Shown one piece after another: positions 1,631 through 19,377 of a stretch of 64,000 nt of DNA. Each line of letters begins with the position of its first letter. The stretch's first letter is position 1. The DNA comes from a virus, in the IMG/VR virus record IMGVR_UViG_3300015371_000003, positions 52,230-116,229 of that record. One strand, given 5' to 3'. The notes below the pieces were generated by a model. That model worked only from the letters and a program-made list of their open reading frames with translations, was not told the DNA's origin and ran no database searches. Made by a program: the position numbers and the translations under genes.

Positions 1631-3625
1631 ATGCTCAAGTTGACGGACGGCACGCCCCCCAAAGACACTCCTGAATCCAAGATTACCTTCATCCAGAAGG
1701 TGATCAAGGGTGAAACGTGGATGGTGATGGCGCACTCCGCCGTCGAATTAGAGGATGAGTTTTCCAGCCTCTATTACACGGCAGGGCAGCAGAACAACCT
1801 GTTCCTGATGCCCCCGTTCGAACCCAACGTCCTCCTGAACCTCGTCCAGACCAACAACATCCTCAACCAGTGCATCGAAGCGATGGAAGTGAACATCGAT
1901 GGCACCGGGCATGAGTTTATTCCGGCGAAGGATAAAGCCTCCGACAAGTCCGCAGGAAAGCCGGGAGCCGAGGACAACGCTCCGGCACAGTCAGGCATTC
2001 CTCCGCCGACATCTTTTGGCAGCATCCGCAAACAGGATGCGACGGCGGATGACATCGATGAGGAGGAGAAGAAAGTAGCGGAGGGATTCTTCAAAGAACC
2101 CTATCCGAACACCTCGTTTGTGTCGATACGCCGGAGAATGCGGCGGCAGATGGAATCGGTGGGCTATGCGTTCCTCGAAGTACTCCGCAATGTGGCCGGG
2201 GACGTAGTAGCTATCCGGAACATTGAAACGCAGCATGTTCGCATGGTGAAGCTGGATGCCCCCATTCAGGTGAAGAAGAAGATTGAGCGGGACGGGAAAG
2301 TCGTGGAACTGGTGCTCTGGGAGCGGGAGCGACGATTTGCACAGACGGTGGCCCTGAAGCAGCAGGTGTACTACCGGGAGTATGGGTCCACCCGTGAAAT
2401 CAACCGGGAAACGGGGGATTGGGAGACGGACACCGAGAAGGTACCGCCGGAGAAGCGGGGATCAGAACTGCTGATGTTTGGGATCAATCCGGACGTGACC
2501 ACCCCGTACTTCCTCCCCCGGTGGATCAACGAGTTACCCTCCGTCATCGGTTCCCGAGCGGCGGAGGAACAGAACCTGCAATTTCTGGATGCGGGTGGTC
2601 TGCCTCCGGCCATCGTATTTATCCAAGGCGGCACACTCATCAAGGACACCTCCGACCAACTCCGCATGTATTTGTCTGGCCTGAACAAGAACAAGAACCG
2701 GGCGGTGGTCGTGGAGGTGCAATCCTCCAGTGGATCACTGGATGCGGCGGGCAAGGTGGATGTGAAAGTCGAGCGATTCGGTTCTGCCCAATCCCAAGAC
2801 GCGATGTTCACCAACTACGATGAATCCACCGAGGAGCACGTGCGGATCGGCTTCCGGTTGCCCAAGATTTTTCTGGGGCGGGAGGAATCCTACAACTTTG
2901 CGACGGCACAAGTGGCCTACATGATTGCGGAGGCCCAAGTCTTTGGTCCGGAGCGGGAGGAGTTTGACAAGATCATCAACAAGACGATCATCAAGGAACT
3001 GAAGCTCAAGACACTGGAATTCAAGTCCAAGCCCATTACCTTGAAGGATGTCACGTCGATTCTGACGGCTCTGGAATTGTCGGCACCGATGGCAACGCGG
3101 GAATCCTTCCTGAAGGAAGTGAATACGTCGGTGGGCACGTCGTTGGAACTGGCGGAAGTCCCGGCCCCGAATGTGGCCCCCGGTCAAACGCCGTTGCCGA
3201 ATACGCGGACCATCGATGAGATGCACCACGGTGAACTGCCCGCGTCTACCCAAACTCCGCAGATGACGGCTCCGCAACAGGAACCCAAGCCCGAGCCACC
3301 ACCGAAGGAGACACACGTCATCCTGAAACCGGGGGATGAGATGCACCCAGTGCCCGCCAAGGATGAGACGATTCGGGCTAAGCCGAAGGAGAAGAAGGCG
3401 GCGAGTGACATCCTGACGCTAGCGCAGGATTACGCCATCTATCAGGGGTTGATGCCCCAACTGGCGATCAAGCAGGAGTTGACCAAAGAGCGAGCGGATG
3501 CTATCAACGAGGAGCTAGACACGCTCCACCCGGATGATGTGCGTGTGTTCAACAGCCTGCTGGCGATGATGGTGTTTGGATCGGATGACGCGGATCTGTC
3601 CTCCGTGATTGCCGCCACCCGGTAA
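1631..3625 (+). CDS. Portal protein
   Basis: 664 aa; portal-type motifs (GYAFLEVLRN, YFLPRW, FLDAGGLP, FRLPKIFLG..YNFATA); first gene of the head module; Pro-rich insertion and C-terminal extension. Confidence 0.92.
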   Translation: MLKLTDGTPPKDTPESKITFIQKVIKGETWMVMAHSAVELEDEFSSLYYTAGQQNNLFLMPPFEPNVLLNLVQTNNILNQCIEAMEVNIDGTGHEFIPAKDKASDKSAGKPGAEDNAPAQSGIPPPTSFGSIRKQDATADDIDEEEKKVAEGFFKEPYPNTSFVSIRRRMRRQMESVGYAFLEVLRNVAGDVVAIRNIETQHVRMVKLDAPIQVKKKIERDGKVVELVLWERERRFAQTVALKQQVYYREYGSTREINRETGDWETDTEKVPPEKRGSELLMFGINPDVTTPYFLPRWINELPSVIGSRAAEEQNLQFLDAGGLPPAIVFIQGGTLIKDTSDQLRMYLSGLNKNKNRAVVVEVQSSSGSLDAAGKVDVKVERFGSAQSQDAMFTNYDESTEEHVRIGFRLPKIFLGREESYNFATAQVAYMIAEAQVFGPEREEFDKIINKTIIKELKLKTLEFKSKPITLKDVTSILTALELSAPMATRESFLKEVNTSVGTSLELAEVPAPNVAPGQTPLPNTRTIDEMHHGELPASTQTPQMTAPQQEPKPEPPPKETHVILKPGDEMHPVPAKDETIRAKPKEKKAASDILTLAQDYAIYQGLMPQLAIKQELTKERADAINEELDTLHPDDVRVFNSLLAMMVFGSDDADLSSVIAATR

Positions 3626-3626
3626 G

Positions 3627-5144
3627 ATGCCGACGCTCGATCTGCGGACGTATGTGCTGTTGGAGCGGGCCTTTGTCCGGAGGCTCCAACGGTCATGGCG
3701 GCAGCAGTCGGCTCCGCTGTACGCGAAGATTGCCCAAGCCTGCAACGACCACAAATGGGATGAAGCCCGCCGTCTTGTCACCGATCTGGACATGACGGAG
3801 GTCGGCACCGAGAACCGCGAGTGGATCACGTACATGCTCCGGTCGTGTGCCGTCTTCGGAGCCGGTACCGTCTCCAAGAAGAAACCGAGTTTCGTGGGCG
3901 TGGGCAGCTTCGATACCTTCCTGAAGCAGACCACGAACAATTTCCTGCAATACCTCGAATTGACCGCCACCGCTCAGATCCAAGCGGAAGCGTTGCAATC
4001 AATTGCCGAAGATGAGGCTAAGACCAAAGCCGCGATGTTGAAGGCGGCATGGGATGAATCCCAACACCCCCGTGACAAGGAAGGACAGTTCACGGAGGCC
4101 GGGGCCGGAACGGAGGCCAAGTCGGGGGATCCCGAAGGCAGTGGCCCCGCCCGTGTGGAATGGAACAAGCGCAACAAGGCGGTGATGGAAGCGACTGATG
4201 TCTATATTGACACCAGAGAAGCCCATCGAGCTTTAGTGGAGCGATTGAACGCTGAATATCAGGCGGAAACCCCGATGGGGTATCCAGAGGCCGGGTATGC
4301 GGCGTACAAGAAATCCCAAGCCACATTGGAGCAGGCCAACCAAGCGTTGGCACAGGCCGAAACTGCGCTGAAGCAACAAGAACCGCTGATGCGGAAGGAA
4401 ATCGTCCAGAATCTGGCGACAGACGTAGCCAGTGATTTGGGCGTTGATCCACGTTTGATTGACGTGGTGGACGAAGCTCCGCATCCGTTTACGGTTGGAG
4501 ATAAGCAATTTACCGAGGCGGGGCACTACGATCCGACTACCAAACGCATTCAGTTGAATTCCAACAATATCTCGTATGCGAATGCCCCCGGAGTCAAGGG
4601 GGTGGTAGCCCATGAAATTTCTCATGCGATCTATCACCAGTTGAAGATTGCGGCGGAGGAGGAATTTCAACGGTATCTCGTCAAAGCTACGACCGAGGAT
4701 GCCTATACCCCGTGGTTTCATGAGCGGTTTACCACCGATCCCCATAAAATTGGCCGTCAGGTGAAGCCCGAGTACGCCAAGGAAATGGCCGAGGAATTTC
4801 CGGCGTCTACCGTGCTGGCCCGGTTGAGTGGGGGAGATATTTTCTCCGGTATCACTGATGAGATGATTGCTGAAAATGGGCATAGTCGGTATGCCAAATC
4901 GTACTGGGCCGCTGAAGCCGAGAAACGGATAGGGCTGCGGAATTACCGTAACGCCATCAATGAAACGATAGCCGAGATTACGCGGTGGTTGGCCTACCCC
5001 CGGTCATGGGAGGAGGAGAAGCCACCGGATCTGGATTCTCCGTGGGTCAAGTTGACAGAATCCATGTTGGGATGGCATCAACGACAGCAAGCTGAACAGG
5101 CGAGGCAGTTTGCCGCGTCTTTGGCGTCGGGGTTCCGAGCATGA
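3627..5144 (+). CDS. Putative MuF N-terminal half + tag 1 + zincin-like metallopeptidase cargo
   Basis: Directly after portal; helical N-terminal ~140 aa; WDESQHPRDKEGQFT at 4050; HEISH at 4611 with downstream ETIAE. Confidence 0.8.
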   Translation: MPTLDLRTYVLLERAFVRRLQRSWRQQSAPLYAKIAQACNDHKWDEARRLVTDLDMTEVGTENREWITYMLRSCAVFGAGTVSKKKPSFVGVGSFDTFLKQTTNNFLQYLELTATAQIQAEALQSIAEDEAKTKAAMLKAAWDESQHPRDKEGQFTEAGAGTEAKSGDPEGSGPARVEWNKRNKAVMEATDVYIDTREAHRALVERLNAEYQAETPMGYPEAGYAAYKKSQATLEQANQALAQAETALKQQEPLMRKEIVQNLATDVASDLGVDPRLIDVVDEAPHPFTVGDKQFTEAGHYDPTTKRIQLNSNNISYANAPGVKGVVAHEISHAIYHQLKIAAEEEFQRYLVKATTEDAYTPWFHERFTTDPHKIGRQVKPEYAKEMAEEFPASTVLARLSGGDIFSGITDEMIAENGHSRYAKSYWAAEAEKRIGLRNYRNAINETIAEITRWLAYPRSWEEEKPPDLDSPWVKLTESMLGWHQRQQAEQARQFAASLASGFRA

Positions 5145-6826
5145 TCCTGCCTGAACCTATCACCCTCAACGGTCGGACGGGTACCGTCGCCTATCTGGAC
5201 GCGCAGTGGCATCCAGTCCCGGCGGATCAGGCGACGATGGCGCGAGTCCTGTTCGATGATGGGGGGACTGGTTTCTTTCAGGTGCAACCGATTGCCAAAT
5301 CCACTGAAGATGCGGTAAAATGGGATGAGTCCAAACACCCCCGCGATAAAGAGGGGCAATTTACCGAAGGAGTCGGAGATGGACGAAGTGGTAAGACAAC
5401 CCCGGAATCTGACAGAGGAGCAGGAGGCAGCGGAGGAGTTGGCGTATCGACGCCCCCCAAAGGGGTGGAAGCCGCAGGTCAAAAACGCCCCCCCGCCGTC
5501 CCCGAAGTCCAAGCCGTAGCGCGGGCGTATAACGCGCAGCACGGACTGCCCCCGGTCGAGCACGGCTATGCGACGGTGAATGAGGCCCGAGCAGGGGCCA
5601 TTGCCGATGCCTATGACGCGCTTCCGGTGGATGATACGGATAATCCAGCGGTGCGGGAGGCGTATGCGGCCCTGAGTCGAGAGATTCAGGAGCAGTGGGA
5701 TTTCATCACCTCTCACGGGGTGACGTTCGAACCGTGGACTGGAGAGGGACAGCCGTATCAGAATTCGCCGGAGATGGTGGCGGACATTCAGAAGAACCAC
5801 CACCTGTATTTCTTCACGGGTGGGGAGCCGCATCCGTTGTTGGGGGCGATTGATCCGGCGACGGGGCTGTCCATGAACGACAAACTGCGAGCAGTCCATG
5901 ACTACTTTGGGCATGCCGCAGGCGGCTATGGATTCGGAGCGAGAGGCGAGGAGAATGCGTGGCGGGCGCATTCCCAGATGTTCAGCGCCCAAGCGAGACG
6001 GGCGATGACGACGGAGACACGCGGGCAGAATTCGTGGGTGAATTTCGGGCGACAGAACTACACGCCTGAGGGCATCTACAAGAATATTCCCGCCGCCGAG
6101 CGTCCGTATGCGGTGCAGAAGGTGGCGATTCTCCCCGATGTGTACGTGGTCTTGGAGCATGGTGGAGTCCTGAAATGGGAGGAGTCACAGCATCCACGGG
6201 TGCCGGGAGGGGAGCATGGCGGAGAGTTTACGCGAGTCGCCATTACGAGTCAGCGACCGGCGGATGACCCCGGCCATCAGACCAATCGGGAAGTGTTTGA
6301 GCACATGCGCGTGTTTGCAGGCCGATTGGCAGCCATCCCCGGCGTGACCAACGTGTCGGTGAAGCCCGGAGTCGGGGGGTGGGACGGCGGAGCCGAATCG
6401 ATGTGGCAAGTGTTCTATCGGGGGAATGGTGAAGCTACGCGGTTGGTGGCGATGACGGCCAAGCACTTCAATCAGGATGCGGTGTTGATCCTTAAGAAGT
6501 GTCAGGGTGGAGCGGATTGTCAGCCCGCTACGGAATTGCATTTCTCCAAGGGGATTGGCGGGAAGGTTCGTGTGGGCGTCGAGAAAGTACTGGTTGAGCA
6601 TAAGATTAAGGGCTGGACGTGGATGAAGCGCGACGGACGGACCATTCTTCGAATGGTGGCGATTCCCGAAGAAGGGGATGATCCGGTCACGCATCAGCAG
6701 ACGACAGCGGTGATTAGTCAGCAGTTGCGGGATAAGGGCTTGATGAACAAACGGCACGTGCAAAAGGTGGCCGTGAGTATGATGCGGCGTGAAGGACCAA
6801 ACAGTTATGACCGAATCCTTGGATAA
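5141..6826 (+). CDS. Multi-module cargo protein: small N-terminal domain + tag 2 + HDxxGH domain + tag 3 + unknown domain
   Basis: ATGA overlap; tags at 5321 and 6176; RAVHDYFGH..GFGARGEENAW..MTTETRGQNSWVNFG at ~5890-6050. Confidence 0.8.
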   Translation: MILPEPITLNGRTGTVAYLDAQWHPVPADQATMARVLFDDGGTGFFQVQPIAKSTEDAVKWDESKHPRDKEGQFTEGVGDGRSGKTTPESDRGAGGSGGVGVSTPPKGVEAAGQKRPPAVPEVQAVARAYNAQHGLPPVEHGYATVNEARAGAIADAYDALPVDDTDNPAVREAYAALSREIQEQWDFITSHGVTFEPWTGEGQPYQNSPEMVADIQKNHHLYFFTGGEPHPLLGAIDPATGLSMNDKLRAVHDYFGHAAGGYGFGARGEENAWRAHSQMFSAQARRAMTTETRGQNSWVNFGRQNYTPEGIYKNIPAAERPYAVQKVAILPDVYVVLEHGGVLKWEESQHPRVPGGEHGGEFTRVAITSQRPADDPGHQTNREVFEHMRVFAGRLAAIPGVTNVSVKPGVGGWDGGAESMWQVFYRGNGEATRLVAMTAKHFNQDAVLILKKCQGGADCQPATELHFSKGIGGKVRVGVEKVLVEHKIKGWTWMKRDGRTILRMVAIPEEGDDPVTHQQTTAVISQQLRDKGLMNKRHVQKVAVSMMRREGPNSYDRILG

Positions 6827-8003
6827 GGCGTTACAGGAATTGGAACAGCTTGTGGCAGAAGAAGCCGCGTCATCGGACACGGGTGAAGATTTGCCAGAGT
6901 ATGATCCGCTGCCTGAAGACGATGACGATGTGTCAGTCACGTTTCTGGCTGGTCCTGCGGTGAAATGGGATCCATCCAAGCACCCGCGTGACAAAGAGGG
7001 GCAGTTCACGGACACCGTAGGCACCATCCGAGGAGTGGTTCGCACCACCGCTGAACAGGCCCGCCGGGATCTGGTCGCACTCGGGAAGAAGGTGGAGCAG
7101 TTAGACCACCGTCATGCGAAAGCCGCCGAGGAATCGCGGGTAGCGTGGGCGGCGTTCATGAAAGACGCACGGGAGCGGAAACGTCCCCTGAAGATTGACG
7201 GGGCGGCGGCGAAGAAATTGCCGTCCTACAAAGCCGCGCAAGCCGCCGATGCCAAGGTCATCGCCATTTCCGAGGAGACATCCCGAGTCGCCAGAGAAGT
7301 CAACAAAGAAGCGTTACGACAACTCGTGGTGCCGGAACGGGAGCGGTCCCTTGTGGAGTTTCTGGTTCCCGAGGGGCAATTGAATCCGGATCCACGGATT
7401 GAAGCTGGAATTGGCGACCACGCGAAGCGAGCGTTGGATGTCTTCCGCAAGTACGATGGGTCCGGGGAGTTGATGGGCGTCCCCATTCCACCGGGGAAAG
7501 AAGAACAGTTCAAAGAGATTTTTGGGGACGTGGAGTTTGAACATCTGCCGGATGGAAGTACGTGGGTGACGAAGAAGCTCCGGTTGACGCGGGCACCGGC
7601 TGGTGCGCGGGCCAATGCGTCGGCGTTTGGGGTACAAATTGGTGGGACTCGTGAGTTGGAGCGGACCATCTATCACGAGGTGGCGCACCATGTGGAGTTT
7701 GCCAACTCGGACATTTATCAGGCCGCTGTGGATCTGCGGGCTTCGCTTGCCAGCGAGTCTACGCCCAAGTCCTTGAATGACTTGAAGGGCGTGGGTGGGT
7801 ATGGACCCGAAGAAATTGCGCTGCCGGGAAAATTTCTCGATTCGTATGTGGGCAAGGTCTATCCGGAGGATGCACGGGCCACAGAAATGTTGTCCACCGG
7901 GATGGAGTACTATCTGACGGACCCGATTCGATTTGCCCGAGAAGCCCCCGAGCATTTCAAGTTTGTGTGGAACGTGATGCACGGGAAGTATCGGAGGAAG
8001 TAA
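6807..8003 (+). CDS. Acidic leader + tag 4 + zincin-like metallopeptidase
   Basis: GAAGGA RBS before ATG 6807; tag at 6966; HEVAHHVE at 7674; YVGKVY..ATEMLSTG.E. Confidence 0.8.
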   Translation: MTESLDKALQELEQLVAEEAASSDTGEDLPEYDPLPEDDDDVSVTFLAGPAVKWDPSKHPRDKEGQFTDTVGTIRGVVRTTAEQARRDLVALGKKVEQLDHRHAKAAEESRVAWAAFMKDARERKRPLKIDGAAAKKLPSYKAAQAADAKVIAISEETSRVAREVNKEALRQLVVPERERSLVEFLVPEGQLNPDPRIEAGIGDHAKRALDVFRKYDGSGELMGVPIPPGKEEQFKEIFGDVEFEHLPDGSTWVTKKLRLTRAPAGARANASAFGVQIGGTRELERTIYHEVAHHVEFANSDIYQAAVDLRASLASESTPKSLNDLKGVGGYGPEEIALPGKFLDSYVGKVYPEDARATEMLSTGMEYYLTDPIRFAREAPEHFKFVWNVMHGKYRRK

Positions 8004-8230
8004 TGGTGGAAGTCGAAGTGTACGGCGAACGAGCACGGTGCCAAAACGGGGTGTGGACGGCGGAGAGTCAGGCGCTGACGGATCTGCTGAACGCTCCGTG
8101 GAATCAGCCGGATGCCTTCCGGTATCGGCTGGATCCGGATATCGATGCGGCGGAGCACGTCGTGAAGACGATGGGCGCACAGGTGATTTCCACCGAACCC
8201 CCGCCCACTGAACCCGGCGTGGTGTACTGA
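8003..8230 (+). CDS. Small acidic protein, putative immunity/partner of the upstream metallopeptidase
   Basis: TAATG coupling; GGAGG RBS; 75 aa. Confidence 0.6.
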   Translation: MVEVEVYGERARCQNGVWTAESQALTDLLNAPWNQPDAFRYRLDPDIDAAEHVVKTMGAQVISTEPPPTEPGVVY

Positions 8231-8273
8231 CGAAACCTTAGGAGTTGCACTTGAGTGCAACGGAGCAACGCCG

Positions 8274-10082
8274 ATGCGGTCGTACCGAGACATTCTCCGG
8301 GGGGCATTGCGTTACGTCCACATCCTCAAGTGGGATGAGTCTAAAATTCACCGTAATCCTGCCGGGAGTCCGGGTAGTTCCGGGGGGCAGTTTGCGAAGA
8401 TGGGGATGCGGGGGAGTGCGTATGGCACGGCTCCGGTGCCCTCCTCTGAAGCTATTGCCCGTATGCCAAGTGGGGCACCGGAAGCGATGGCCCACATGCG
8501 ACGGGCGGGCCTGATCGCACAGCAGGATCGGGAGAAGTATCAGGAATTAGCCGCAGCGGAATCCCAAGCGGTGCGTCAAGGCGGCGGCGTGGCCGGATGG
8601 CGGTCGAGGGATAAAGCCGCAGAGCGGTACAAGGATGTGCTGATCAACCGCCCCCGTGCGGAGAATTTCGAACCACCTCCTCCCCCACCCCCAGAACCCA
8701 CACCAGTACTCACGTCTGGCAGTGCCACCAGTGTCGTGAAGAAATTGGGCGGCAGTTCGAATGCCTGCTACGTCGTCCAGATGGAGGATGGTTCCAAAGC
8801 CTTCTTCAAACCGGAAGCCGGGGAGACGTGGGAAGCCGGGTTCTGCAACAACGACATTTCCACCTACATCACCAATAAAGACTTTTCACTGGCGGAGCGG
8901 GAAGCCACCGCACATGAAGTGTCTATCGCGTTGGGGTTTGGGGAGTTGGTGCCGGAAACCCATCTCCGTGAACACTTCGACGTGCCGGGGATCGATCTAG
9001 CCACCGATGATGAATCCGGCGGCGGTTACGATGAAGACTACGTGCGGAGCCTCTACAACCAGTACCATGAAAAAGCCCAAGAAAAGGCTTTTGATGAGGC
9101 TGGTGAGGAGATGGCGAATCAGTACTATGATGCTCAGCAGGAGCATTTGAGGGATGTCAAGAATCGCGCCGAGGAAATGACGGATATCTGGAATGAGGTA
9201 ATTAAGGAATTTCCAGATGGTCCGGACTACGGATCACAGTCGGCGTTGCAAGAACATCCTCGTCTCCCGCTTGGGTCACAGCACTTCAGCCGCCCCCCGC
9301 AGGTCGGGGTGGTTGATCCACTGGACGTGTTGAAAGAAGCGGATGTGGACATCTCGGCGGCGATGAACAATGAGGAGCGAGAACGGGTTGCGGACGTGTT
9401 CCGTGATCGGTTGAAAGCCGGTCATCAGGAACTAGGCGATGTGGACGAGGAAGCCGCCAAAGACGATCTGGATCGGGATCAGTGGTACGAGGATCACCAA
9501 AATACCGAGGCACGGTTAATCGAAAGCAAAATTCAGTCGTTTGATTCGTGGCGGCATAGTCAGGGTTACGACAGCGGCGATCAAGGAGGGGGCGGCAACG
9601 TCTTCAAGAATTCCGAGGCTCCTCATCCTCACGGCGGATCCCTGCAACGGTGGTTAAACAGCGGAGGCCGCGATGGGGATATGACCCATGAGGAGGCCAC
9701 GCAATTTGCGGTGCTCGATTATGTGTTGGGCACGATGGATCGGCACGGCAACAACATCATGTTCTCCGGTGGGAAAGCCTACGCCATTGATAACGGTTAT
9801 GCCTTCCCCGGCCCGGATACGCCCGATGGGTTTACTTACCGGTCAGATGCCGTACGGGAGTGGATGGGGGATGACCAACACCGCGAAGTCCCCGAAAGCA
9901 CCCGGAATGAAATCTTGGGAGCGATGAATCGGACGGACTGGAAAGCCTTGGTAGACCGTCACCCGAGCATGAGCCGGGAAGAACGGCAGTCGTTTCTGGA
10001 CCGGGTGGACAAGATGAAAGAAGCCCTGTCCTACGCCGAGGGGTTGTCCACCCTCTGGCATGACCAGCAATTGATGTATTGA
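8274..10082 (+). CDS. Tag 5 + HipA/PI3-PI4-kinase-like kinase with large acidic insertion
   Basis: LGGSSN, FFKP, EREA, VPET, GSLQRW, DYVLGTMDRHGNN (9738), AIDNG (9786). Confidence 0.82.
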   Translation: MRSYRDILRGALRYVHILKWDESKIHRNPAGSPGSSGGQFAKMGMRGSAYGTAPVPSSEAIARMPSGAPEAMAHMRRAGLIAQQDREKYQELAAAESQAVRQGGGVAGWRSRDKAAERYKDVLINRPRAENFEPPPPPPPEPTPVLTSGSATSVVKKLGGSSNACYVVQMEDGSKAFFKPEAGETWEAGFCNNDISTYITNKDFSLAEREATAHEVSIALGFGELVPETHLREHFDVPGIDLATDDESGGGYDEDYVRSLYNQYHEKAQEKAFDEAGEEMANQYYDAQQEHLRDVKNRAEEMTDIWNEVIKEFPDGPDYGSQSALQEHPRLPLGSQHFSRPPQVGVVDPLDVLKEADVDISAAMNNEERERVADVFRDRLKAGHQELGDVDEEAAKDDLDRDQWYEDHQNTEARLIESKIQSFDSWRHSQGYDSGDQGGGGNVFKNSEAPHPHGGSLQRWLNSGGRDGDMTHEEATQFAVLDYVLGTMDRHGNNIMFSGGKAYAIDNGYAFPGPDTPDGFTYRSDAVREWMGDDQHREVPESTRNEILGAMNRTDWKALVDRHPSMSREERQSFLDRVDKMKEALSYAEGLSTLWHDQQLMY

Positions 10083-10085
10083 AAC

Positions 10086-10114
10086 TTGACATATCCACCA
10101 TTTGGTGGTAAACT
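10086..10114 (+). promoter_or_regulatory. Sigma70-type promoter for the small downstream gene
   Basis: TTGACA-17 nt-TAAACT with TGn extended -10; CCACCA-TT-TGGTGG palindrome in the spacer. Confidence 0.7.
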
Positions 10115-10134
10115 TACTACATGGGGGGTGTGTG

Positions 10135-10359
10135 ATGCACGTGGAATTGCTGGATGTTTCGTCAGGAAATGAGGAAGTGTACGGCACCGTCCGGATGGAC
10201 AACGGACAGGTGGTAGTCGAAGGGGACGTGCCCGCCCGTGTCAAACGAGATATCGAATTCGAGCGGCGGCACACCGATGTCGGGGACGAAGCGTTTCTTC
10301 TGCGCCTTGAACAGCGGGTGTTCACAGGCCGGTATCTGCGGGCGCGATTCGTGAAATAA
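10135..10359 (+). CDS. Small protein, putative kinase immunity/antitoxin
   Basis: 74 aa directly after the kinase, with its own promoter. Confidence 0.6.
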   Translation: MHVELLDVSSGNEEVYGTVRMDNGQVVVEGDVPARVKRDIEFERRHTDVGDEAFLLRLEQRVFTGRYLRARFVK

Positions 10360-10365
10360 TCCCCC

Positions 10366-13300
10366 ATGCTCCGTATCCACCCGCCGAAGGTGCAACCCAT
10401 TGCACCCTCCCTTCTTGAAGTCCTGAAGTTTGATCCGAGTGAACCTCGTGATCCTCACGGACGATGGACGACTTTCGGCGCGTCCATTCGAGTTGGGGAC
10501 CGAGAGATTGCCGTAGTCAAACCAGCCCGCGCCAGAGACGATCAACTGGTCCCCCTGAACGTCGTCGCATTTGATACCGAATTTCAGCGGGAGCAGGGGT
10601 TTTATCTGGGCGTCGGTGGAATTGGGGGGATCGGCACCCGCTACCAACGTTTCGGGGACTTCATTGCCTCTCATGACAGCATCGAAGCGGCGGAAGTGTC
10701 CGTGCAGGAGAACGGGCGCGTGGGTTTCACCAACGGACGCCACCGGTATGCGTGGCTCCGTGATCAAGGATTGACCACCATTCCCGTAGCCATGACCCCG
10801 GAGTCAGTCAGGAACGCCAAGAAGCATGGGTATCTGGCGGCGGTCAAGCTGGCGTGGGATGAGAGCCAACCTCGTGACGCTAAAGGACGGTGGGCAAAAG
10901 GATCAGCAGAACCTCCACCAGTCGGTCCACGTATTGGATTTGTGGGGCCGGATGGGAAGGAGCATGTTGGACGTAAGACGGGGGGATTAGGAGGGTATTC
11001 CGAAGATCACACGGACACGGCTCGCCGGTTACTAGATAAGGAATACTCCACGGCACTGAGTCAGGCGCAAGCACGTGGTGGGGATTACCCAAATGCCATT
11101 CGTTTGATGTTGGAACAAGGAGCCATTCGGTATTGGGTGCGGAACGGGGAGATTGCGCTGCATTTTCAAGCAGGCCACCCAAAGACCGTCGAACACGTCA
11201 TTCAATTTCTGCATGACAATTTTCAGGATGGGGATCGCATTTATATCGACATCGAAGGGGCCGAACCGCATGTGCATTTTTTCGATAATGTCGGAGCCGC
11301 GAATCGTACTATTCGTCAGACAAAGCCACTCAAGAAGGTGGCGCAAGAGCATTCCTACGGCAACACCCAGATTCAAATTGCTCCGACCAGTGCCGCCGCA
11401 CTTTCTCTGAATATGGCCCGTGCTGCCATCCGCGATGAACATTGCATGGCAACCGGCAAGGATGTGGATCCGAACCATGTGACGGTGCGCTTCGGCCTCC
11501 TGAACGATGATCTGGATGGTCTGCGGTCGTTTATTGTCCGTCAACAGTCCTTCGAAGCTGAGGTCGGAGAGATTGAACTATTCCCGGCCAGTGAGCACAG
11601 CGATGGAGCCGTGCCCGTCGTGGCCCGCATCGTCAGTCCCGAGTTGCATGCCATCGAAGCGGAGATAGGGCAGTATGCCGACTTCAAGGATAAGAATTTC
11701 CCCGAGTACAAACCCCATTGCACCCTTGCCTACGTCCACCCGGACAAAGCGGATTACTACCGTGATCTGTTCGTCAACGGATCGTTCGTGGTGCAGAGCA
11801 TTACCATCAGTCATGCCTCCGGGGTGCAGGAGACGATCCCCTTCGGGATGGCCCAGAAGTGGGACGTGACGAAGCGGGATGGCAAGAGCACCCGCTTTCA
11901 TAATCGTCCGCATTGGGCCGAGAGCCTACACCCACGTCAGCCTGCGGGATCTTCTCGCGGCGGCGAATTCATGTCCACGTTGCATGGTCCTAGAGATGCG
12001 TTGGATTCTCTGCTCAACAAAGAGAAGAACGTCAGCATTGACCGGAATGATGTCCGTCGCTTTCTCGAATTAGCCGGGGAGCAACTGGAAGATCCGGACC
12101 TCACCGATTTGCAAGTCGAGGGGATGGAGATTTTTGGGGGCAATGGTCTGGGCATCAAACGTGATCAGATGCCGCAGATTCCCCGTGAGCATCGGCAACG
12201 ATTTTTGAGAGAGTTGGTGGCGGCGGGTGTCAAGATTACGGAGGAGTCCGTCGATCCCCTCACCCTGAAACCCACCCAGAAGGAAATCTCCGCCCGCCGG
12301 GTGATGGAGAAGATTACCAAGTACGAAACCAAGAACAAAGCCTTTCCTCCCCTCCTCGTCTCTCTGGATGACCGAGTATTAGACGGCCATCATCATTGGG
12401 GCATGATGGCGGCATTTGCGCTGGATGTACCGGAGGCCAAGGTGCCCATCTTCCGGTTGCACATCAAGACCAAAGCCGCCTTGTCCATGATGCACGCTTA
12501 CATGCGAAAGCACCACATCAAGCGGGCGTCGATTACCGGGGAGAAGATTGCAGCGGATCCAGTCACAGGACGCTACGTTACACCTTTCGTCTCTTTCGAA
12601 AAACAAGGCGATGAACAACTCCGGATGATCGCCAGTCTCAATTCCAGCCGGTTGGCGACGTGGGGATTCACGGCAGAGGCCGAAGTCTTGGGGATGGCCC
12701 GGTACAAGTTGACCGCTGTACTGGACGGTCGCACCAGCAAATTCTGCCGGATGATCAACGGACATATCTTCGACGTGCCGGATGCCCGCCGCAAGGTGAT
12801 CGAAGCCCTGAACGTCCAAGACCCGAACGACTTGAAGACGGTGCAGCCGTGGCCCAAGCAAACCAAGGAGGCGATGGCTGAGTACGCCAAGATGAGTCCA
12901 CAGGATTTTGTGGATCGGGGACTGCACATTCCTCCGTATCATCCCCACTGCCGCACGCTCCTCCGCCATGTGCAATCAAGTGCAGGGAAAGCCACCGAAC
13001 CTCCGGTCCCCACCCTCCCTGATGACACCGAGGTGTTCCATCCGATCACCCAAGCGGACTTGAAAGAGTTGGGGGTGGAGGCCACGCCCGAAGAAGTTGC
13101 GTGGTGGAACAGTCAGATTGGGATGAGTCCCACGGAGTTGATCGCCAAGCTCACCGGCATGCCGCCCCAAGAAATTCTGACCAAGGGCAAAGGCATCGGA
13201 GCCAATCCTATTCGCTTCGATGAGGGGGGCGCGGGGAACATCGGCGTCCGAGCCAGAGGCGAACTACCGAGCGGCGTGGAATTCGCCATGGGCGCGATTC

Positions 13301-13773
13301 TCGATCCGTTCACAGGCATTTTCTACTTGTCAGAAGCCGCACTGGAAGTCGGAACACCAGCGGCAGAAATCTCGTTTCTCAAGAATCTGTTCTCGGAGAT
13401 GATCAATACCGGCCTTCGCACGTCAGCGACCGAAGTGGCGGTGGGCGTGGCCGGGAATGCGGCGTATTATGCGAAACTCGGTTTCCTCCCCGATGATTTG
13501 GAGTGGGAGACGCTACGCACGCATACGTTGACGGAGCTAGAGAGCGGTGGATTGCAGGAGATGTTTCAGTCCTTGGCCCCGCTGGATCAGGAACTGGTGA
13601 AGCATCTGTTGCAGGATCAATCCGCGTCAGCCCTTTCCGCATTGGTGGATCTGCCATTCACCTACGAAGGCCGTACATTCGGAGAGTGGATGCTGGAAGA
13701 TGCGGGCGGGACGTGGGGATTGGATCTGACGGATGAGGCGGTAGTGAACCAAGCGAAAGCCTACCTGTCATGA
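10366..13773 (+). CDS. Polyvalent head protein: ParB-like, unknown, Acb1-like 2H phosphoesterase, ParB/Srx-like, MuF C-terminal half, possible GNAT-like domain
   Basis: NGRHR; HVT (11476) and HCT (11716); DGHHHW (12382); LDGRTSKFC..G..F and PPYHPHCRT (12931); YYAKLGF (13465); tags at 10429, 10855, 11914. Confidence 0.85.
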   Translation: MLRIHPPKVQPIAPSLLEVLKFDPSEPRDPHGRWTTFGASIRVGDREIAVVKPARARDDQLVPLNVVAFDTEFQREQGFYLGVGGIGGIGTRYQRFGDFIASHDSIEAAEVSVQENGRVGFTNGRHRYAWLRDQGLTTIPVAMTPESVRNAKKHGYLAAVKLAWDESQPRDAKGRWAKGSAEPPPVGPRIGFVGPDGKEHVGRKTGGLGGYSEDHTDTARRLLDKEYSTALSQAQARGGDYPNAIRLMLEQGAIRYWVRNGEIALHFQAGHPKTVEHVIQFLHDNFQDGDRIYIDIEGAEPHVHFFDNVGAANRTIRQTKPLKKVAQEHSYGNTQIQIAPTSAAALSLNMARAAIRDEHCMATGKDVDPNHVTVRFGLLNDDLDGLRSFIVRQQSFEAEVGEIELFPASEHSDGAVPVVARIVSPELHAIEAEIGQYADFKDKNFPEYKPHCTLAYVHPDKADYYRDLFVNGSFVVQSITISHASGVQETIPFGMAQKWDVTKRDGKSTRFHNRPHWAESLHPRQPAGSSRGGEFMSTLHGPRDALDSLLNKEKNVSIDRNDVRRFLELAGEQLEDPDLTDLQVEGMEIFGGNGLGIKRDQMPQIPREHRQRFLRELVAAGVKITEESVDPLTLKPTQKEISARRVMEKITKYETKNKAFPPLLVSLDDRVLDGHHHWGMMAAFALDVPEAKVPIFRLHIKTKAALSMMHAYMRKHHIKRASITGEKIAADPVTGRYVTPFVSFEKQGDEQLRMIASLNSSRLATWGFTAEAEVLGMARYKLTAVLDGRTSKFCRMINGHIFDVPDARRKVIEALNVQDPNDLKTVQPWPKQTKEAMAEYAKMSPQDFVDRGLHIPPYHPHCRTLLRHVQSSAGKATEPPVPTLPDDTEVFHPITQADLKELGVEATPEEVAWWNSQIGMSPTELIAKLTGMPPQEILTKGKGIGANPIRFDEGGAGNIGVRARGELPSGVEFAMGAILDPFTGIFYLSEAALEVGTPAAEISFLKNLFSEMINTGLRTSATEVAVGVAGNAAYYAKLGFLPDDLEWETLRTHTLTELESGGLQEMFQSLAPLDQELVKHLLQDQSASALSALVDLPFTYEGRTFGEWMLEDAGGTWGLDLTDEAVVNQAKAYLS

Positions 13774-13946
13774 TCAAAGTGAAACCGATTACTTCCCACC
13801 GAGCAGGACCGGCCATCAAACCACTGGTGACGGTGCCTGCCAAGCCTCCGATGGTGAAGCGGTCCTATCAGCAATTGGTCACGCGACAGAACGTCCCTCC
13901 CGAGAGAGCCATATCTCTCCTGTTGAGCTTGCCTAGAGAAAAATAG
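13770..13946 (+). CDS. Small basic 58-aa protein (not in ORF track)
   Basis: ATGA overlap; MIKVKPITSHR...VKRSYQQLV...PREK*. Confidence 0.5.
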   Translation: MIKVKPITSHRAGPAIKPLVTVPAKPPMVKRSYQQLVTRQNVPPERAISLLLSLPREK

Positions 13947-14007
13947 TTGTTGCCTCTCAACCGGTCCTGTAAAATAACGTGCAATCAGTTGCACCGGGAG
14001 AGCCACC

Positions 14008-14526
14008 ATGCCCCTACATACGACCGGATTGACTTCGCGGCACGACCTCGATCATCCGGACGAGAAACCTCCTGCGAAGGCCGATCCGCTGCCCTATGAA
14101 CGGGTGTTGAAGTTCAACCCCAATCATGGGCCGGATGGCCGGTTCACCTCCGGCGGTGGAGGCCGCAGAGGTGGGACGGAAGGTCCACCGCGAGTGGGAG
14201 CCTTCGGGCAGAAGCTGTCTCCGGCGGAGGTTGAGTTTCGGGTTTCTCGCCCGAAAACATATCAAGATCGATTGAAAGGTTCAGCGGCACGAGCCGCGAA
14301 TGATGCGAGGCTGGATCGACAGCAGGCGGAAGTCGCCCGTCAGCAACAAGAATCTCTCGCAGAAGCAACAAGAATTATTTCTGGAGTGACCTATGCCTCA
14401 GCGGGGCGTCAAGCATCGGCCCGCCAGATGCTGAGCAATGCGAGTCTTGCGACTCGTGCGACGACTACCACGCACACGGGTTCGATGGTCGGAGGTGTTC
14501 CCACCAAGCGATCCACTTTCAGCTAA
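14008..14526 (+). CDS. Putative internal head protein with tag 9
   Basis: GGGAG RBS; MPLHTTGLTSR leader; YERVLK-FNPNHGPDGRF. Confidence 0.7.
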   Translation: MPLHTTGLTSRHDLDHPDEKPPAKADPLPYERVLKFNPNHGPDGRFTSGGGGRRGGTEGPPRVGAFGQKLSPAEVEFRVSRPKTYQDRLKGSAARAANDARLDRQQAEVARQQQESLAEATRIISGVTYASAGRQASARQMLSNASLATRATTTTHTGSMVGGVPTKRSTFS

Positions 14527-14538
14527 GGGATTCGGGTC

Positions 14539-14844
14539 ATGCCCATCACTTCCGGGTTTACTACCCGTGCCGCCGCCGCCGAGAAAGGCGAAGGCCATAT
14601 CCACACGGATAAGTGGCATCGCTGTATTGAGCACGTGAAAGGCAAAAGCAGCGGCGTCGATCCCTATGCGGTGTGTACCCACAGCATCGGATATGCGGGA
14701 TCGGTCAATCCTGAACATCGGACGGAAGGACGCCATGCGTCCGCGAATCCCAAGCGGTTCAAGACCAAAGAAGGCCAGCGAAGTGCCCGTGCCCGTGAGA
14801 AAGCCGCGAAACAGTCCTATGCGGAAGTCCTGAAGTTCAAATAG
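14539..14844 (+). CDS. Small basic putative internal head protein
   Basis: MPITSGFTTR leader; KWHRCIEHV..DPYAVC; ends SYAEVLKFK. Confidence 0.7.
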   Translation: MPITSGFTTRAAAAEKGEGHIHTDKWHRCIEHVKGKSSGVDPYAVCTHSIGYAGSVNPEHRTEGRHASANPKRFKTKEGQRSARAREKAAKQSYAEVLKFK

Positions 14845-14847
14845 TCC

Positions 14848-15924
14848 ATGCCGATTACGGAAGGCTTTACCACACGGGGGATGGTCGCCAAAAGTGGCTA
14901 CTCGTGTGTCGGTCCCCCCAAGCAAGGGCACATGGAGAAGCGGGGGCACCAGAAGAAACGGAAAGCCGCCTCCTATCTGGGGGTGTTGAAGTTTGATGAA
15001 AGTGCGGTCAATCGCCAACCAGCGGGTGCTCCCGGTAGCAAAGGCGGAGAATTCGCCCCGAAAGGTCAAGGATTTAAGGGGAGTACCGGCAGCAGAACTG
15101 GTAAAGATTTGACGCCCGCTCAGCGAGCCATGCAGCGGACGTTGAAGGAACAGAGCCGCAAGCGCATCCATAAAGTGGACACCCCCGAACAAGGGGTGGC
15201 GCTGATTCTCAAGGGCGAACGGGTGGAATTACGGGACACCAAAGATGTTCACACGGTCCTCAAAGAACTAGGCGAGATGGCGATCAAAGCCAAGGAAGCC
15301 TGTGGCGGGAAGGAACCGTGTGAAGGCGTCCCCAATTTCGATCCCTGTCTGGTGACGGTCAAAGGCACCAGCTTGTTTTGCTCTGAAAAACTCAAAACGA
15401 AAGAATTTCCTCACGGGATTCCGCGTATTGAGATGCCGCAGTTCAAGTCCAAGAATCCCGTGCCGGGGAGCGAAGCCGATAAACTGCCCCGTGATGCCAA
15501 CGGAGAAGTGGATGCTACGGATGCGTTTCTCAAGCATCTGGATGAAGCAGGTGTGAAAACAAATTCGTATGACACCGTGCTTGCCCGCAAATTGAAGGCG
15601 AGTCAGGCGGAGATGGAAGGCGCGAAAGTCGCCGCCATGATGCTGTCGTCACGGGATCCCAAGAAAGCCCGTATTGTGGTGTCGGCAGACAACTACGTGG
15701 TGGATGGGCACCACACGTGGGCCGCGTCGGTGGGCCGGGATGCTGAGGACGGCAATCTGGACAACGACAAAGAAATGGAAGTGGTCCGGATCAATCTGCC
15801 GATGTCCGACATCTATCAGTTGGCGGTGGAGTGGACCAAGACTTTTGGCATGCCGCAAGCCGGTATCAAAAAGCGTGATTGGTTGAGGGCTGTGCTCACC
15901 TTCGGGCAGGCGTCTCTCAACTGA
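14848..15924 (+). CDS. Tag 10 + ParB/Srx-like domain protein
   Basis: MPITEGFTTR leader; tag at 14992; LKASQ..IVVS.DNYVVDGHHTW (15703); paralogous to the 11971-12540 module. Confidence 0.78.
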   Translation: MPITEGFTTRGMVAKSGYSCVGPPKQGHMEKRGHQKKRKAASYLGVLKFDESAVNRQPAGAPGSKGGEFAPKGQGFKGSTGSRTGKDLTPAQRAMQRTLKEQSRKRIHKVDTPEQGVALILKGERVELRDTKDVHTVLKELGEMAIKAKEACGGKEPCEGVPNFDPCLVTVKGTSLFCSEKLKTKEFPHGIPRIEMPQFKSKNPVPGSEADKLPRDANGEVDATDAFLKHLDEAGVKTNSYDTVLARKLKASQAEMEGAKVAAMMLSSRDPKKARIVVSADNYVVDGHHTWAASVGRDAEDGNLDNDKEMEVVRINLPMSDIYQLAVEWTKTFGMPQAGIKKRDWLRAVLTFGQASLN

Positions 15925-15935
15925 ATGGAGAGCCT

Positions 15936-16676: not shown

Positions 16677-16690
16677 CAGGGGAGGGGCGT

Positions 16691-17287
16691 ATGCCGAAAC
16701 CAAAACACAAGGCACTCGTGATCAAGAACGAAGAAGCACAACTTGTGTTTGGGGAGGTGTACGCCCCGAACCGTCCCGACGCGCAAGGTGAGTACATGAC
16801 GGCCACGGACATTCAGAAGATGGCCCATGAATTCATCCGGTCAGGCAAGATGGGTCAGATTGATGTGATGCACGGGAACAAAGTGGTGACGGGCGCGAGT
16901 GTGGTTGAGTCCTTCGTGGCGGATGACACGGATTCCCGCTTCCTGCCCGGTTCGTGGGTGATCGGTGTCCACATTCCCGATCCTCAACTCTGGTCTGCCA
17001 TCAAGAAGGGTGAAATCAACGGCTTCAGCATGGAAGCCTTGGTGACACGCCATGAGATGGATGTGGAAGTCGAAATTCCTCCGGTGGTCACAGGCTTGAC
17101 CAGTAAGCATGACGATCATCAACACAAATTTTTCGTCGCCTACGACCAAAAAGGGGAATTCAAAGGCGGTGTGACGGATACGGTCAATGGGCATTTCCAT
17201 GCGATTGTCGCCGGGACACATACTCAGGATGCCGCAGGCCACCGTCACCGCTTTTCTAGCGTTGATAACGTGCGGATTCTAGGGTAG
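16691..17287 (+). CDS. Prohead protease, XkdF-like, with His-rich C-terminal tail
   Basis: GGAGG RBS at ATG 16691; VFGEVYAP..PDAQGE, IDVMH, VVESF, GSWVIGV, W..IKKGEINGFS.E. Confidence 0.88.
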   Translation: MPKPKHKALVIKNEEAQLVFGEVYAPNRPDAQGEYMTATDIQKMAHEFIRSGKMGQIDVMHGNKVVTGASVVESFVADDTDSRFLPGSWVIGVHIPDPQLWSAIKKGEINGFSMEALVTRHEMDVEVEIPPVVTGLTSKHDDHQHKFFVAYDQKGEFKGGVTDTVNGHFHAIVAGTHTQDAAGHRHRFSSVDNVRILG

Positions 17288-17297
17288 TCTTGCACAC

Positions 17298-18392
17298 ATG
17301 GCTACGATTCAAACCAAGCTGAAGCAGTTGCGAAACGCGGATGTCCGGTTTATTTCGCTGGTGGATCGTGCCGCCACGCGCATTCCCTTCCGGGTGCTGA
17401 AGCGGAACAAGGAGAATTCGATGGGCATTGATTTGACGAGCGTGTTCAAGTCGGAGGCACAAGTACCGCCACACGTCTCGGCAGTGGTGGTCTTTGCCCA
17501 GAAGAATGAAGCCGCCGGGAAGCAGATCGCGGAGGCGATCAAGGCCCACGGCTTCATCACGGATCGGGTGCAGAAATCTGACGAGGGAGAAACGCTGGTG
17601 TTCTCCCAAGGCGATCAGCCGAAGGACACCGTGGTCGTGCGTCTGAGCGATCAGATGCTGGTGTCGGTAGCTGGTCTGGGCATCCCCGAAGGATGGGTGG
17701 GGGATCTGGTCGAGGAGCACGGTTTCTTCCCCGATCTGGCAATGGCGAATGCGGCGATGGAAGATCGGTTGCAGGAAGTCGTCACCAAGTCCGAAGCCCC
17801 GCAGCAGGACGCCCAAGCGGTGCTCACCAGCTATGCTCAGTACGTGAGCCAGATGGCGGTGTTGCCGACCGCCGTGTTCAAGCTGGATGAAGCCATCCGT
17901 GACATCGTGCAGAAGTGCGCGTGTCAGGAACCGGCGGAAAAAACCGACGATGCCTCGCCCACCAAGAAGATCGTGGAGAAGGCGGCAGGCACCACGGAAA
18001 CCGACGCGGAGAAAGCGAAGCGAGTCAAGAACCATCCGCCTGCGGAGATGGCTCCTCCGGACGAAGACGACGATCAGAAACCACCACCGGATGAAGTCAA
18101 CAAGTCCGACGAATCGGCTATTCTCACGGCGCTGAAGGGCATCGAAACGACCGTCTCCGGGTTGTCCGCCAAGCTGGAAACGGTTGTCACCGAGCAAGTC
18201 GCGCAGAAGAAAGTGCTTGACGACGTGGTGCAGAAATCCGACACTCTGGCAACTACGTTGAAGTCCACCGTGACGGCTCCCCCGCTCGCAGGGGATCATC
18301 CGGCGGGCCTTCCCCGGATGCGGGTGGAGAAGCAGGACACGGATCCCCGCACGGGCAATTTCGACACGGCGTTTCTCCGGAGACGGCGCTAG
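17298..18392 (+). CDS. Capsid scaffold protein
   Basis: Between protease and capsid; FISLVDRAA N-terminal motif; many V-x-K-[SA] repeats; coiled coil. Confidence 0.75.
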   Translation: MATIQTKLKQLRNADVRFISLVDRAATRIPFRVLKRNKENSMGIDLTSVFKSEAQVPPHVSAVVVFAQKNEAAGKQIAEAIKAHGFITDRVQKSDEGETLVFSQGDQPKDTVVVRLSDQMLVSVAGLGIPEGWVGDLVEEHGFFPDLAMANAAMEDRLQEVVTKSEAPQQDAQAVLTSYAQYVSQMAVLPTAVFKLDEAIRDIVQKCACQEPAEKTDDASPTKKIVEKAAGTTETDAEKAKRVKNHPPAEMAPPDEDDDQKPPPDEVNKSDESAILTALKGIETTVSGLSAKLETVVTEQVAQKKVLDDVVQKSDTLATTLKSTVTAPPLAGDHPAGLPRMRVEKQDTDPRTGNFDTAFLRRRR

Positions 18393-18432: not shown

Positions 18433-19377
18433 ATGACGAATCAGGAAGTGATCATCCAGAAAGCTGATCTGGCGCTGAGTGATCTGGCGACCGCCGGGAA
18501 GCTGAATCCCGAGCAGACCGACCGGTTCATTCGGACGCTGATCGATCAGCCGACGTTGCTCGCCTCTGTCCGCACGGTGGCGATGGGCGCTCCGCAGATG
18601 AAGATCAACAAGATCGGATTCGGGAGCCGCATTCTGCACCCGGCAGTCAGCGCCACCCCGCTGCCTGACAACCTCCGCTCGAAACCCGATCTGGGTCAGG
18701 TCCAACTCGAAACCGCCGAAGTCATCGCGGAAGTTCACATTCCGTACGATGTCATCGAGGACAACATCGAGAAGGGCAACGTCAACGTGCCGATGCAAAC
18801 CGGCGCGGGCGGATTGCATCAGACCATCGTGGACCTGATGGCGGAACGGGCGGCTCTCGATCTGGAGGAACTTGCCATTCAGGGCGATACCACCAACGTG
18901 GGGGATCCCTATCTGGCCCTTCAGGACGGGTACCTGAAGATGGCGACGGCGAACGTCGTCAACGTCGGGGGCGCGTTCGACAAGACGGCGGTCAAACAGG
19001 CGCTCAAGACGATGCCCACCCGGTACCTCCGGAACCGGAGTGCCATGTCGCACTTCGTCTCCGTGGACAACGAGACGGAAATCCGTGACCAGTACGGCGC
19101 ACGGCAGACGGCACTCGGGGATCAGCAGTTGCAGGGGCTGCTGCCCGTTTACATCTACGGTTCGAAGGTCGTGCCGGTTGCCATGATGTTGGGCACCAGC
19201 GGGCTGTTCACCGATCCGATGAACCTGATCTTCGGGATCCAGCGCAACATCATGATCGAGTACGACAAGGACATCCGGGCGCGGGTGTTCATCATCGTGC
19301 TGACGGCCCGCATCGACTTCGCCATCGAAGAAGCGAACGCCGTCGTCAAGTACACCGGCATCACCGGAAGCCGGTAG
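18433..19377 (+). CDS. Major capsid protein (HK97 fold, XkdG-like)
   Basis: 314 aa; AAGGAG RBS; G.LNPEQ..RFI, EDNIE, DLEEL.IQGD, N.IFGIQR.I.IE; strong codon bias. Confidence 0.92.
   Translation: MTNQEVIIQKADLALSDLATAGKLNPEQTDRFIRTLIDQPTLLASVRTVAMGAPQMKINKIGFGSRILHPAVSATPLPDNLRSKPDLGQVQLETAEVIAEVHIPYDVIEDNIEKGNVNVPMQTGAGGLHQTIVDLMAERAALDLEELAIQGDTTNVGDPYLALQDGYLKMATANVVNVGGAFDKTAVKQALKTMPTRYLRNRSAMSHFVSVDNETEIRDQYGARQTALGDQQLQGLLPVYIYGSKVVPVAMMLGTSGLFTDPMNLIFGIQRNIMIEYDKDIRARVFIIVLTARIDFAIEEANAVVKYTGITGSR

Follow-up and report, generated by a model that had tools for sequence, protein, structure and literature searches.

Polyvalent proteins, in which unrelated effector domains are strung together, were described by Iyer, Burroughs, Anand, de Souza and Aravind (2017, PMC5512222), with the metallopeptidase as their main hub and the enzyme proposed to process them, and the virion proteome of phage phi24B confirms that virions may contain a polyvalent protein in abundance. 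In the MuF polymorphic toxins (Jamet et al. 2017, PMC5576092; Bxa, PMC11699363), capsid targeting is attributed to the MuF domain. Polyvalent and MuF-linked phage effectors are already known, but the ways in which their modules are delimited, loaded and released are not. Here we analyzed a window of 64,000 nucleotides, the right-hand 64 kb of the 116,229-bp viral contig IMGVR_UViG_3300015371_000003 from IMG/VR, in which a 12.3-kb island of eight collinear plus-strand genes (open reading frames, ORFs, A to H) lies in the phage head block and carries ten copies of a short peptide, hereafter called the tag. The interpretation that we favor, with a confidence slightly better than even, is that the tag is a conserved header of swappable effector cassettes, a peptide that marks their junctions, and that the modules are then predicted to be cut apart just before the tag and to leave with the DNA. 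Taken as a whole, the island is best read as a phage-type polyvalent, or MuF polymorphic, effector locus.

All ten peptides listed in an earlier note on this DNA were recovered at their positions on the plus strand (Table 1), where they occupy three reading frames. Nine follow the pattern [WF]-[DE]-[EP]-S-x-H-P-R...G-x-[FW] strictly and one, in ORF F, does so loosely; a six-frame scan of the window revealed no tag copy beyond the ten. Residue shuffles of the eight ORFs yielded a mean of 0.0125 copies (maximum 1), and codon shuffles of the whole window a mean of 0.28 (maximum 3), compared to the nine strict copies observed. The earlier note had held that the closest copies differ mostly at synonymous positions, and this was confirmed for tags 1 and 2, which differ by nine synonymous and one non-synonymous changes in 45 bases; the corresponding values are seven and three for tags 2 and 4, and four and four for tags 1 and 4. 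This pattern supports the protein-level selection that had been proposed, and the tag is a linear motif of 14–22 residues under such selection. The copies had also been thought to be confined to the interval between portal and protease, which is true of the window but not of the genome, since an 11th copy, MFAAVLK-FDPAQPRDAKGRW, lies about 14 kb upstream of the portal at the head of a 177-residue protein (genome positions 39659-40192; L190:5660-6193). The 11th tagged gene encodes a Tpt1/ART-like module behind a 7-residue leader and adjoins genes for PPDK-like and dual-specificity phosphatase proteins, and in related phages the same module is found inside MuF polyproteins, between MuF-N and the metallopeptidase.

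Each tag in the island stands ahead of a separate module, as had been claimed. The module types headed in this way comprise two zincin-like HExxH peptidases, phrog_3170, PI3/PI4-kinase-like, ParB-like and 2H phosphoesterase modules, and the MuF core, and several unrelated modules may share one polypeptide (ParB/PFIN-like, 2H/Acb1-like, ParB-like and MuF in ORF E; two modules in ORF B). Comparison of ORFs A to H with the collected relatives by BLAST placed 109 of 466 internal breakpoints of high-scoring segment pairs at tags, where 33 were expected; for ORF A alone the figure was 40 of 70, compared to 3.5 expected, with the sites at residues 148 and 161-181. In relatives, the MuF-N head and tag are followed by a metallopeptidase, an ART-PolyVal, Tpt1-like, TopoIB or 2H domain, or an exotoxin-type ADP-ribosyltransferase (ART), and additional modules may be inserted between two tags. 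Ungapped DNA identity profiles of five Neisseria portal genes and six Desulfovibrio Rhs genes gave the same picture, with 77–100% identity up to and through the tag and about 25% from 60 nucleotides beyond it, a profile typical of the junctions of polymorphic toxins. The tag thus marks a switch from conserved to unrelated sequence among related genes. In the Neisseria contigs (L118, L140, L164, L167 and L169), a portal with a conserved acidic linker is followed by the tag and then by unrelated C-terminal domains, indicating that the portal itself carries a polymorphic effector.

The coincidence of breakpoints and identity drops with tags bears out one half of the suggestion that tag DNA could promote cassette swapping as Rhs and CdiA junction motifs do. 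The other half fares less well, because the longest DNA word common to any two copies is 13 nucleotides, and the copies of the tag DNA are therefore too unlike one another to undergo ordinary homologous recombination in this genome. The stronger proposition, that the tag is solely a DNA-level site of microhomology with no function in the protein, would account for the breakpoints, but it is largely refuted by the mainly synonymous differences and by the shortness of the shared words; the amino-acid core is, moreover, kept across phyla of differing codon usage. We regard this proposition as highly improbable.

The tag is not the only peptide found at such junctions. Some homologues of the ORF B domain have, at the same position, the Gly-rich peptide GGPGSGNFGH-x-GRPG-xx-GGS, or an FNP-x-H variant. 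The Gly-rich peptide was seen ahead of this domain in the phage proteins P0197, P0200, P0204, P0209 and others, and two proteins contain both peptide types; it is absent from the present genome and matched nothing in the literature. The tag is one of several interchangeable junction peptides.

To determine how widely the tag is distributed, a hidden Markov model (HMM) of 34 positions was built from the ten copies and run against 1.84 billion representative proteins, where it matched 1257 clusters at E<=1e-3, 195 at E<=1e-10 and 9 at E<=1e-30. With a library that large, one copy alone does not reach significance, and 1257 is therefore a minimum. The highest numbers of copies per protein were 22 (in a protein of 7334 residues) and 17 (in one of 5313 residues). 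The matches examined are phage-type polyvalent proteins of the kind described by Iyer et al. 2017 (PMC5512222), together with portal, MuF or DUF2213 fusions, and the domains that they carry include ART-PolyVal, MuF, 2H, GNAT, LPD1/3, TopoIB, zeta toxin and portal. A degenerate DNA pattern of the core was found in more than 104 IMG/VR stretches among the matches listed, and in 84 stretches of bacterial contigs representing one genome per species; chance was estimated to account for about 7. The hosts range over Proteobacteria, Firmicutes, Actinobacteria, Cyanobacteria/Melainabacteria, Planctomycetes, Bacteroidetes and Verrucomicrobia. Among the viral tag ORFs, Pfam identified portal fusions in 15 of 75, followed by LPD3 (8), DUF2213 (6), kinase-like (6) and MuF (5) domains, as well as ART, zeta toxin, PBECR1, 2H, NUDIX, pyrophosphatase, TopoIB, Acb1 and SAM lyase. 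The bacterial tag ORFs contained Phage_portal_3 (9), LPD3 (6), PBECR1 (4) and other domains. Immediate neighbors of tag ORFs encoded MuF (8), terminase (5+3+3), DUF2213 (4) and portal proteins. The context is thus overwhelmingly that of the phage head module. Phage tags join effector modules to each other and to carriers in the head interior (portal, MuF, DUF2213 and XkdF-type protease), or follow short leaders on small head-module genes. A tblastn search of the 29-residue tag against 50,697 phage records, which is an insensitive search, gave four weak matches; a tagged Escherichia coli protein of 113 residues had no match in the phage collection. None of the matches examined was a protein of conjugative elements (ArdC, relaxase), at which no search was aimed.

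The tag is apparently undescribed. No model in Pfam or NCBIfam matches it, even at E=10 or E=1, nor does any chain in the Protein Data Bank, and full-text literature searches with tag motif strings returned nothing relevant. A word search of the text of Iyer et al. revealed no description of a junction peptide, the MuF toxin and Bxa papers mention no junction motif, and the tag is not described by Zhang et al. 2012 (PMC3482391), who reported the pre-toxin motifs of Rhs and CdiA proteins. We also considered the second half of the tag (D-x-x-G-R-F) as a derivative of the YD repeat and rejected it, as the RHS_repeat model gave no match and the likeness is one of resemblance only.

Not all tags belong to phages. 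Nine bacterial tag ORFs have a Pfam match to the Teneurin YD-shell, which is characteristic of Rhs proteins, and in Desulfovibrio and Nitratidesulfovibrio Rhs proteins (contigs L106, L113, L122, L124, L128, L142, L144, L148, L160 and L163) the tag lies 0–10 residues past the self-cleavage motif at the end of the core (DPxGL or DASGL), at the head of a C-terminal pesticin-like or NlpC/P60 toxin. At the Rhs loci examined, the neighboring genes are cellular (e.g. nitroreductase), without phage genes. The earlier note would have given up its interpretation if the tag proved common in non-virion proteins, and the chromosomal Rhs toxins go part of the way there. Among Rhs proteins, the tag has so far been seen only in the Desulfovibrionaceae. 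The tag is therefore not virion-specific, and is a general junction motif rather than a label for capsids only. It is best described as a header or junction peptide of mobile effector cassettes, found mainly on phage head-delivered polyvalent or polymorphic proteins, and also on some Rhs toxins.

This finding bears directly on the reading of the earlier note, in which the tag itself is a capsid-targeting, retention or ejection signal that binds a component of the head interior and loads each module. A role in capsid targeting alone is made less likely by the tags of Rhs toxins, which are encoded in capsid-free chromosomal loci. Tags also accompany at least five unrelated portal families (Phage_portal, Phage_portal_2, Phage_portal_3, Portal_Mu and SPP1_portal), so that no single conserved head partner is evident, and proteins fused to portal or MuF would need no second targeting signal, yet have many tags. 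Most homologues of the ORF B cargo domain, in addition, lack the tag. On the other hand, many tags are N-terminal on small stand-alone head-module proteins without a carrier domain, the 11th copy heads a stand-alone module outside the head block that relatives keep within a MuF polyprotein, and the tag is predicted to be exposed in a disordered linker. The internal proteins of phage T4, moreover, have in common only a leader that directs packaging (PMC12373910). On balance, we consider such a targeting signal unlikely.

The presence of the tag in Rhs proteins argues for a role wider than capsid loading, and shows that phage cargo and bacterial contact-toxin systems share one cassette pool. It is conceivable that the tag is a system-independent header for two closed-container machines, the phage capsid and the Rhs cocoon, serving a step common to both, for example threading out of the container or recognition by a conserved factor of the target cell, and that it is also a common currency for the movement of cassettes between phage cargo and bacterial toxin loci; we consider this broader proposal rather unlikely. 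A related alternative is that the tag acts after delivery, as a handle for a conserved factor of the target bacterium (chaperone, protease, membrane or nucleic acid), or in unfolding or refolding on exit from the container. Such a role would explain why capsid cargo and Rhs toxins alike use the tag, and it agrees with the occurrence of the same core in very distant bacterial phyla, with its use by two different delivery machines, and with the fact that in both of them it stands at the N-terminus of the released module, or close to it. No known motif or solved structure matches the tag, however, and the Desulfovibrionaceae Rhs tags could be passengers of cassette transfer. We judge a post-delivery role to be improbable.

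Structure prediction sheds some light on how the tag is displayed. The AlphaFold2 (AF2) model of ORF A has a mean predicted local distance difference test (pLDDT) score of 79.9, with residues 180-511 confident and residues 144-175 below 50. The tag, at residues 148-162, lies between the helical MuF-N part and a confident zincin-like domain, for which Foldseek returned weak matches to selecase, abylysin and lethal factor. The model of ORF E is poor (mean pLDDT 49), too poor to place tags 6 and 7; tag 8 falls in a low-pLDDT linker (residues 495-538) between the 2H and ParB-like modules. In these models the tag behaves as an exposed linear motif in a flexible linker. The placement is relevant to the idea that the tag is a recognition site of the zincin-like metallopeptidase modules, which would split the polyprotein in the capsid or after injection. 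Two HExxH modules are found in the island, each after a tag, and processing by a metallopeptidase has been proposed for polyvalent proteins generally (PMC5512222). However, AF2 leaves the tag disordered and outside the active-site cleft, and many tagged proteins or loci are without a metallopeptidase, including the Neisseria portal-toxin fusions, the small stand-alone proteins and the Rhs toxins. We give this idea little credence.

The residues that precede the tag may mark a candidate cut site. As noted earlier, nine of the ten copies begin 1–3 residues after a Lys: seven have it at -1 and two (4050 and 10855) at -3, and the copy at 11914 is preceded by NRPH. Lys is not a feature of the family, however, but a habit of the lineage: in the 150 best proteins, which contain 633 instances, the residue at -1 was K in 30%, A in 20%, E in 13% and D in 13%. 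Identity at -1 was 44% within proteins and 17% between them, and positions -4 to -1 as a whole are alike within proteins but not between them, a pattern that fits a lineage-specific candidate cut site ahead of a universal core (W-D-E-S-x-H-P-R...G-x-F). Weak support for a Lys cut site comes from the conserved Lys in the scaffold (RIPFRVLK) and in the N-terminus of the capsid protein in the window, in the related phage Summit and in the related contig L074, and from other phages in which tags stand directly ahead of XkdF-type protease domains. It is a reasonable inference that a head protease cuts upstream of the tag and that the modules are delivered with the DNA. In the present phage, modules would enter the procapsid by means of MuF pieces and leaders, and would then be cut just ahead of the tag at a lineage-specific site (hydrophobic-hydrophobic-Lys in this phage), with the XkdF-type head protease as the most likely enzyme. 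Every module would then begin at or near its tag and exit with the DNA.

Several observations weigh against the cassette-header and cleavage interpretation. We found no measured cleavage, packaging or ejection for any tagged protein. Variable positions inside the tag show an equal within-protein excess, so that concerted evolution explains the residues ahead of the tag equally well, and when the class of the -1 residue was compared with whether an XkdF-type protease is present, the result was mixed, with no clean link. Among the 169 viral-contig tags, 67 lie within 60 residues of the ORF start, where a cut would take off only a short leader. Rhs proteins, for their part, lack a capsid and are equipped with an autoprotease of their own. 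Finally, the tag is missing from 102 of the 120 ORF B domain homologues, indicating that it is dispensable for that domain.

The organization of the locus itself is consistent with insertion of cassettes into a head gene. Within the phage collection, relatedness at the DNA level was confined to Stenotrophomonas phage Summit (Delepquintavirus, 95.7 kb), which is 74% identical in the capsid region. The order of the head block is portal, island, Pro-rich ORF, XkdF-type protease, scaffold-like protein and major capsid protein, whereas in Summit the interval between portal and protease holds one gene for a 400-residue MuF-ParB protein (L001:1993-3195). The N-terminus of the Summit protein aligns with the beginning of ORF A, and its MuF core with residues ~745-880 of ORF E. 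The island is therefore contained in a split MuF gene, the two parts of which are separated by about 8.5 kb of cassettes. The MuF models score below their family thresholds (Phage_Mu_F 19.4 bits, cut-off 29.6; TIGR01641 32.9, cut-off 39.65); the Summit protein shows clear similarity in its MuF region. The protease starts near 16685 rather than at 16124, as its homologue in contig L074 has 196 residues and is 83% identical. The same contig shows two other arrangements of island genes: a G-like leader and the H module make up one protein of 411 residues, and the leader of ORF B is joined directly to the third module of ORF B at a tag.

Smaller features of the island and its surroundings are as follows. 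ORFs F, G and H share a starting leader, MPIT-x-GFTTR / MPLHTTGLTSRHD, which resembles the stretch PVVTGLTSKHDDH in the C-terminal part of the protease (17100-17200). The small ORF that follows the kinase-like gene is kept in that place in five related phage contigs. The Pro/Gly-rich ORF ahead of the protease contains repeated HPEHPIVLPP and PPGIWG units and has no homologue among the collected relatives. In Summit, an ORF of 56 residues located 3' of the protease (L001:3846-4016) includes a stretch, NPYRGAGGKF, that resembles a degenerate tag, and its last residues are GGLKF, similar to the point at which ORF G is truncated.

Table 1. Features of the head block, effector island and tags, in window coordinates
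Feature	Position	Strand	Remarks
Portal protein	1631..3625	+	phrog_12 portal 4.5e-20; Pfam Phage_portal match weak; homologous to Summit portal
Island, ORFs A to H	3609-15924	+	
ORF A	3609..5144	+	MuF N-terminal part, tag, zincin-like metallopeptidase (HEISH); Zn_peptidase_2 and SprT-like matches weak
ORF B	5141..6826	+	60-residue leader domain, tag, phrog_3170 domain, tag, C-terminal module
ORF C	6789..8003	+	Acidic leader, tag, second HExxH (HEVAH) module
Second small untagged ORF	7967-8230	+	Within island
ORF D	8274..10082	+	19-residue leader, tag, PI3/PI4-kinase-like module; PF00454 3.7e-8; seven homologues in related contigs
Small untagged ORF	10102..10359	+	Candidate partner or immunity gene
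ORF E	10366..13773	+	Polyvalent, three tags; ParB/PFIN-like, unknown module, 2H/Acb1-like phosphoesterase, ParB-like, MuF core, C-terminal region
ORF F	14008..14526	+	Leader, degenerate tag, low-complexity tail
ORF G	14539..14844	+	Leader-only paralogue, ends two residues into tag (...VLKFK*)
ORF H	14848..15924	+	Leader, tag, ParB-like module; phrog_2859
Pro/Gly-rich ORF	15879-16676	+	265 residues; between last cargo gene and protease
XkdF-type (Peptidase_S78_2) prohead protease	16685..17287	+	PF14550 4.1e-24, residues 199-307 of long ORF
Scaffold-like protein	17298..18392	+	Conserved RIPFRVLK site
Major capsid protein	18433..19377	+	Similar to Summit major capsid protein
Tag 1	4050..4094	+	WDESQHPRDKEGQFT; in ORF A
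Tag 2	5321..5365	+	In ORF B
Tag 3	6176..6232	+	Long form with P-G-G...G-G-E-F; in ORF B
Tag 4	6966..7010	+	In ORF C
Tag 5	8331..8396	+	Long form; in ORF D
Tag 6	10429..10470	+	FDPSEPRDPHGRWT; in ORF E
Tag 7	10855..10896	+	In ORF E
Tag 8	11914..11970	+	Long form; sole copy without nearby Lys; in ORF E
Tag 9	14113..14148	+	FNPNHGPDGRFT, loose variant; in ORF F; FNP-x-H variant recurs in other phages
Tag 10	14992..15057	+	Long form; in ORF H

The link to Rhs toxins, the junction at the DNA level and the alternative junction peptide are new here. The header peptide offers a simple sequence handle for finding phage-delivered effectors, anti-defense enzymes included, in any genome, and the tag is a defined site at which processing and packaging can be probed by mutation.

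Compared with the polyvalent proteins (PMC5512222), the island has the same strings of unrelated effector domains (metallopeptidase, ART, 2H, ParB and kinase-like) in one polypeptide, the same location beside virion genes and fusion to MuF or portal, and the same zincin-like HExxH component, represented here by HEISH in ORF A and HEVAH in ORF C with weak Pfam matches; proteolytic processing has been proposed for both. It differs in that the polyprotein is divided in part among eight neighboring genes that lie within a split MuF gene. The MuF polymorphic toxins likewise consist of a conserved head-protein N-terminus followed by a variable C-terminal effector, but the window has many modules rather than a single toxin, and none of its genes is clearly established as an immunity gene. 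The pre-toxin motifs of Rhs (PxxxxDPxGL) and CdiA (VENN) proteins (Zhang et al. 2012, PMC3482391) resemble the tag as short conserved motifs placed exactly at the boundary between conserved and variable toxin regions, and cassettes that keep the motif also occur as separate genes nearby. Their sequence is different, however, and the Rhs proteins of Desulfovibrionaceae carry the tag in addition to, and just downstream of, DPxGL; the tag has no known or apparent autoproteolytic activity. In phage T4, the capsid targeting sequence of the internal proteins and Alt, cut by gp21 at L/I-x-E, is similarly a short peptide common to unrelated injected proteins, with an adjacent protease site (putative here) and polymorphic cargo genes. 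There is no sequence similarity between the two, and the T4 leader is strictly N-terminal and is removed, whereas the present tag is also internal, is repeated up to 22 times, would remain on the module, and is found outside phages too. The proteases differ as well, the one here being of the XkdF/S78_2 type, and the preceding residue is Lys in this phage and variable among lineages, unlike the gp21-type L/I-x-E. The T4 internal proteins are the closest functional counterpart.

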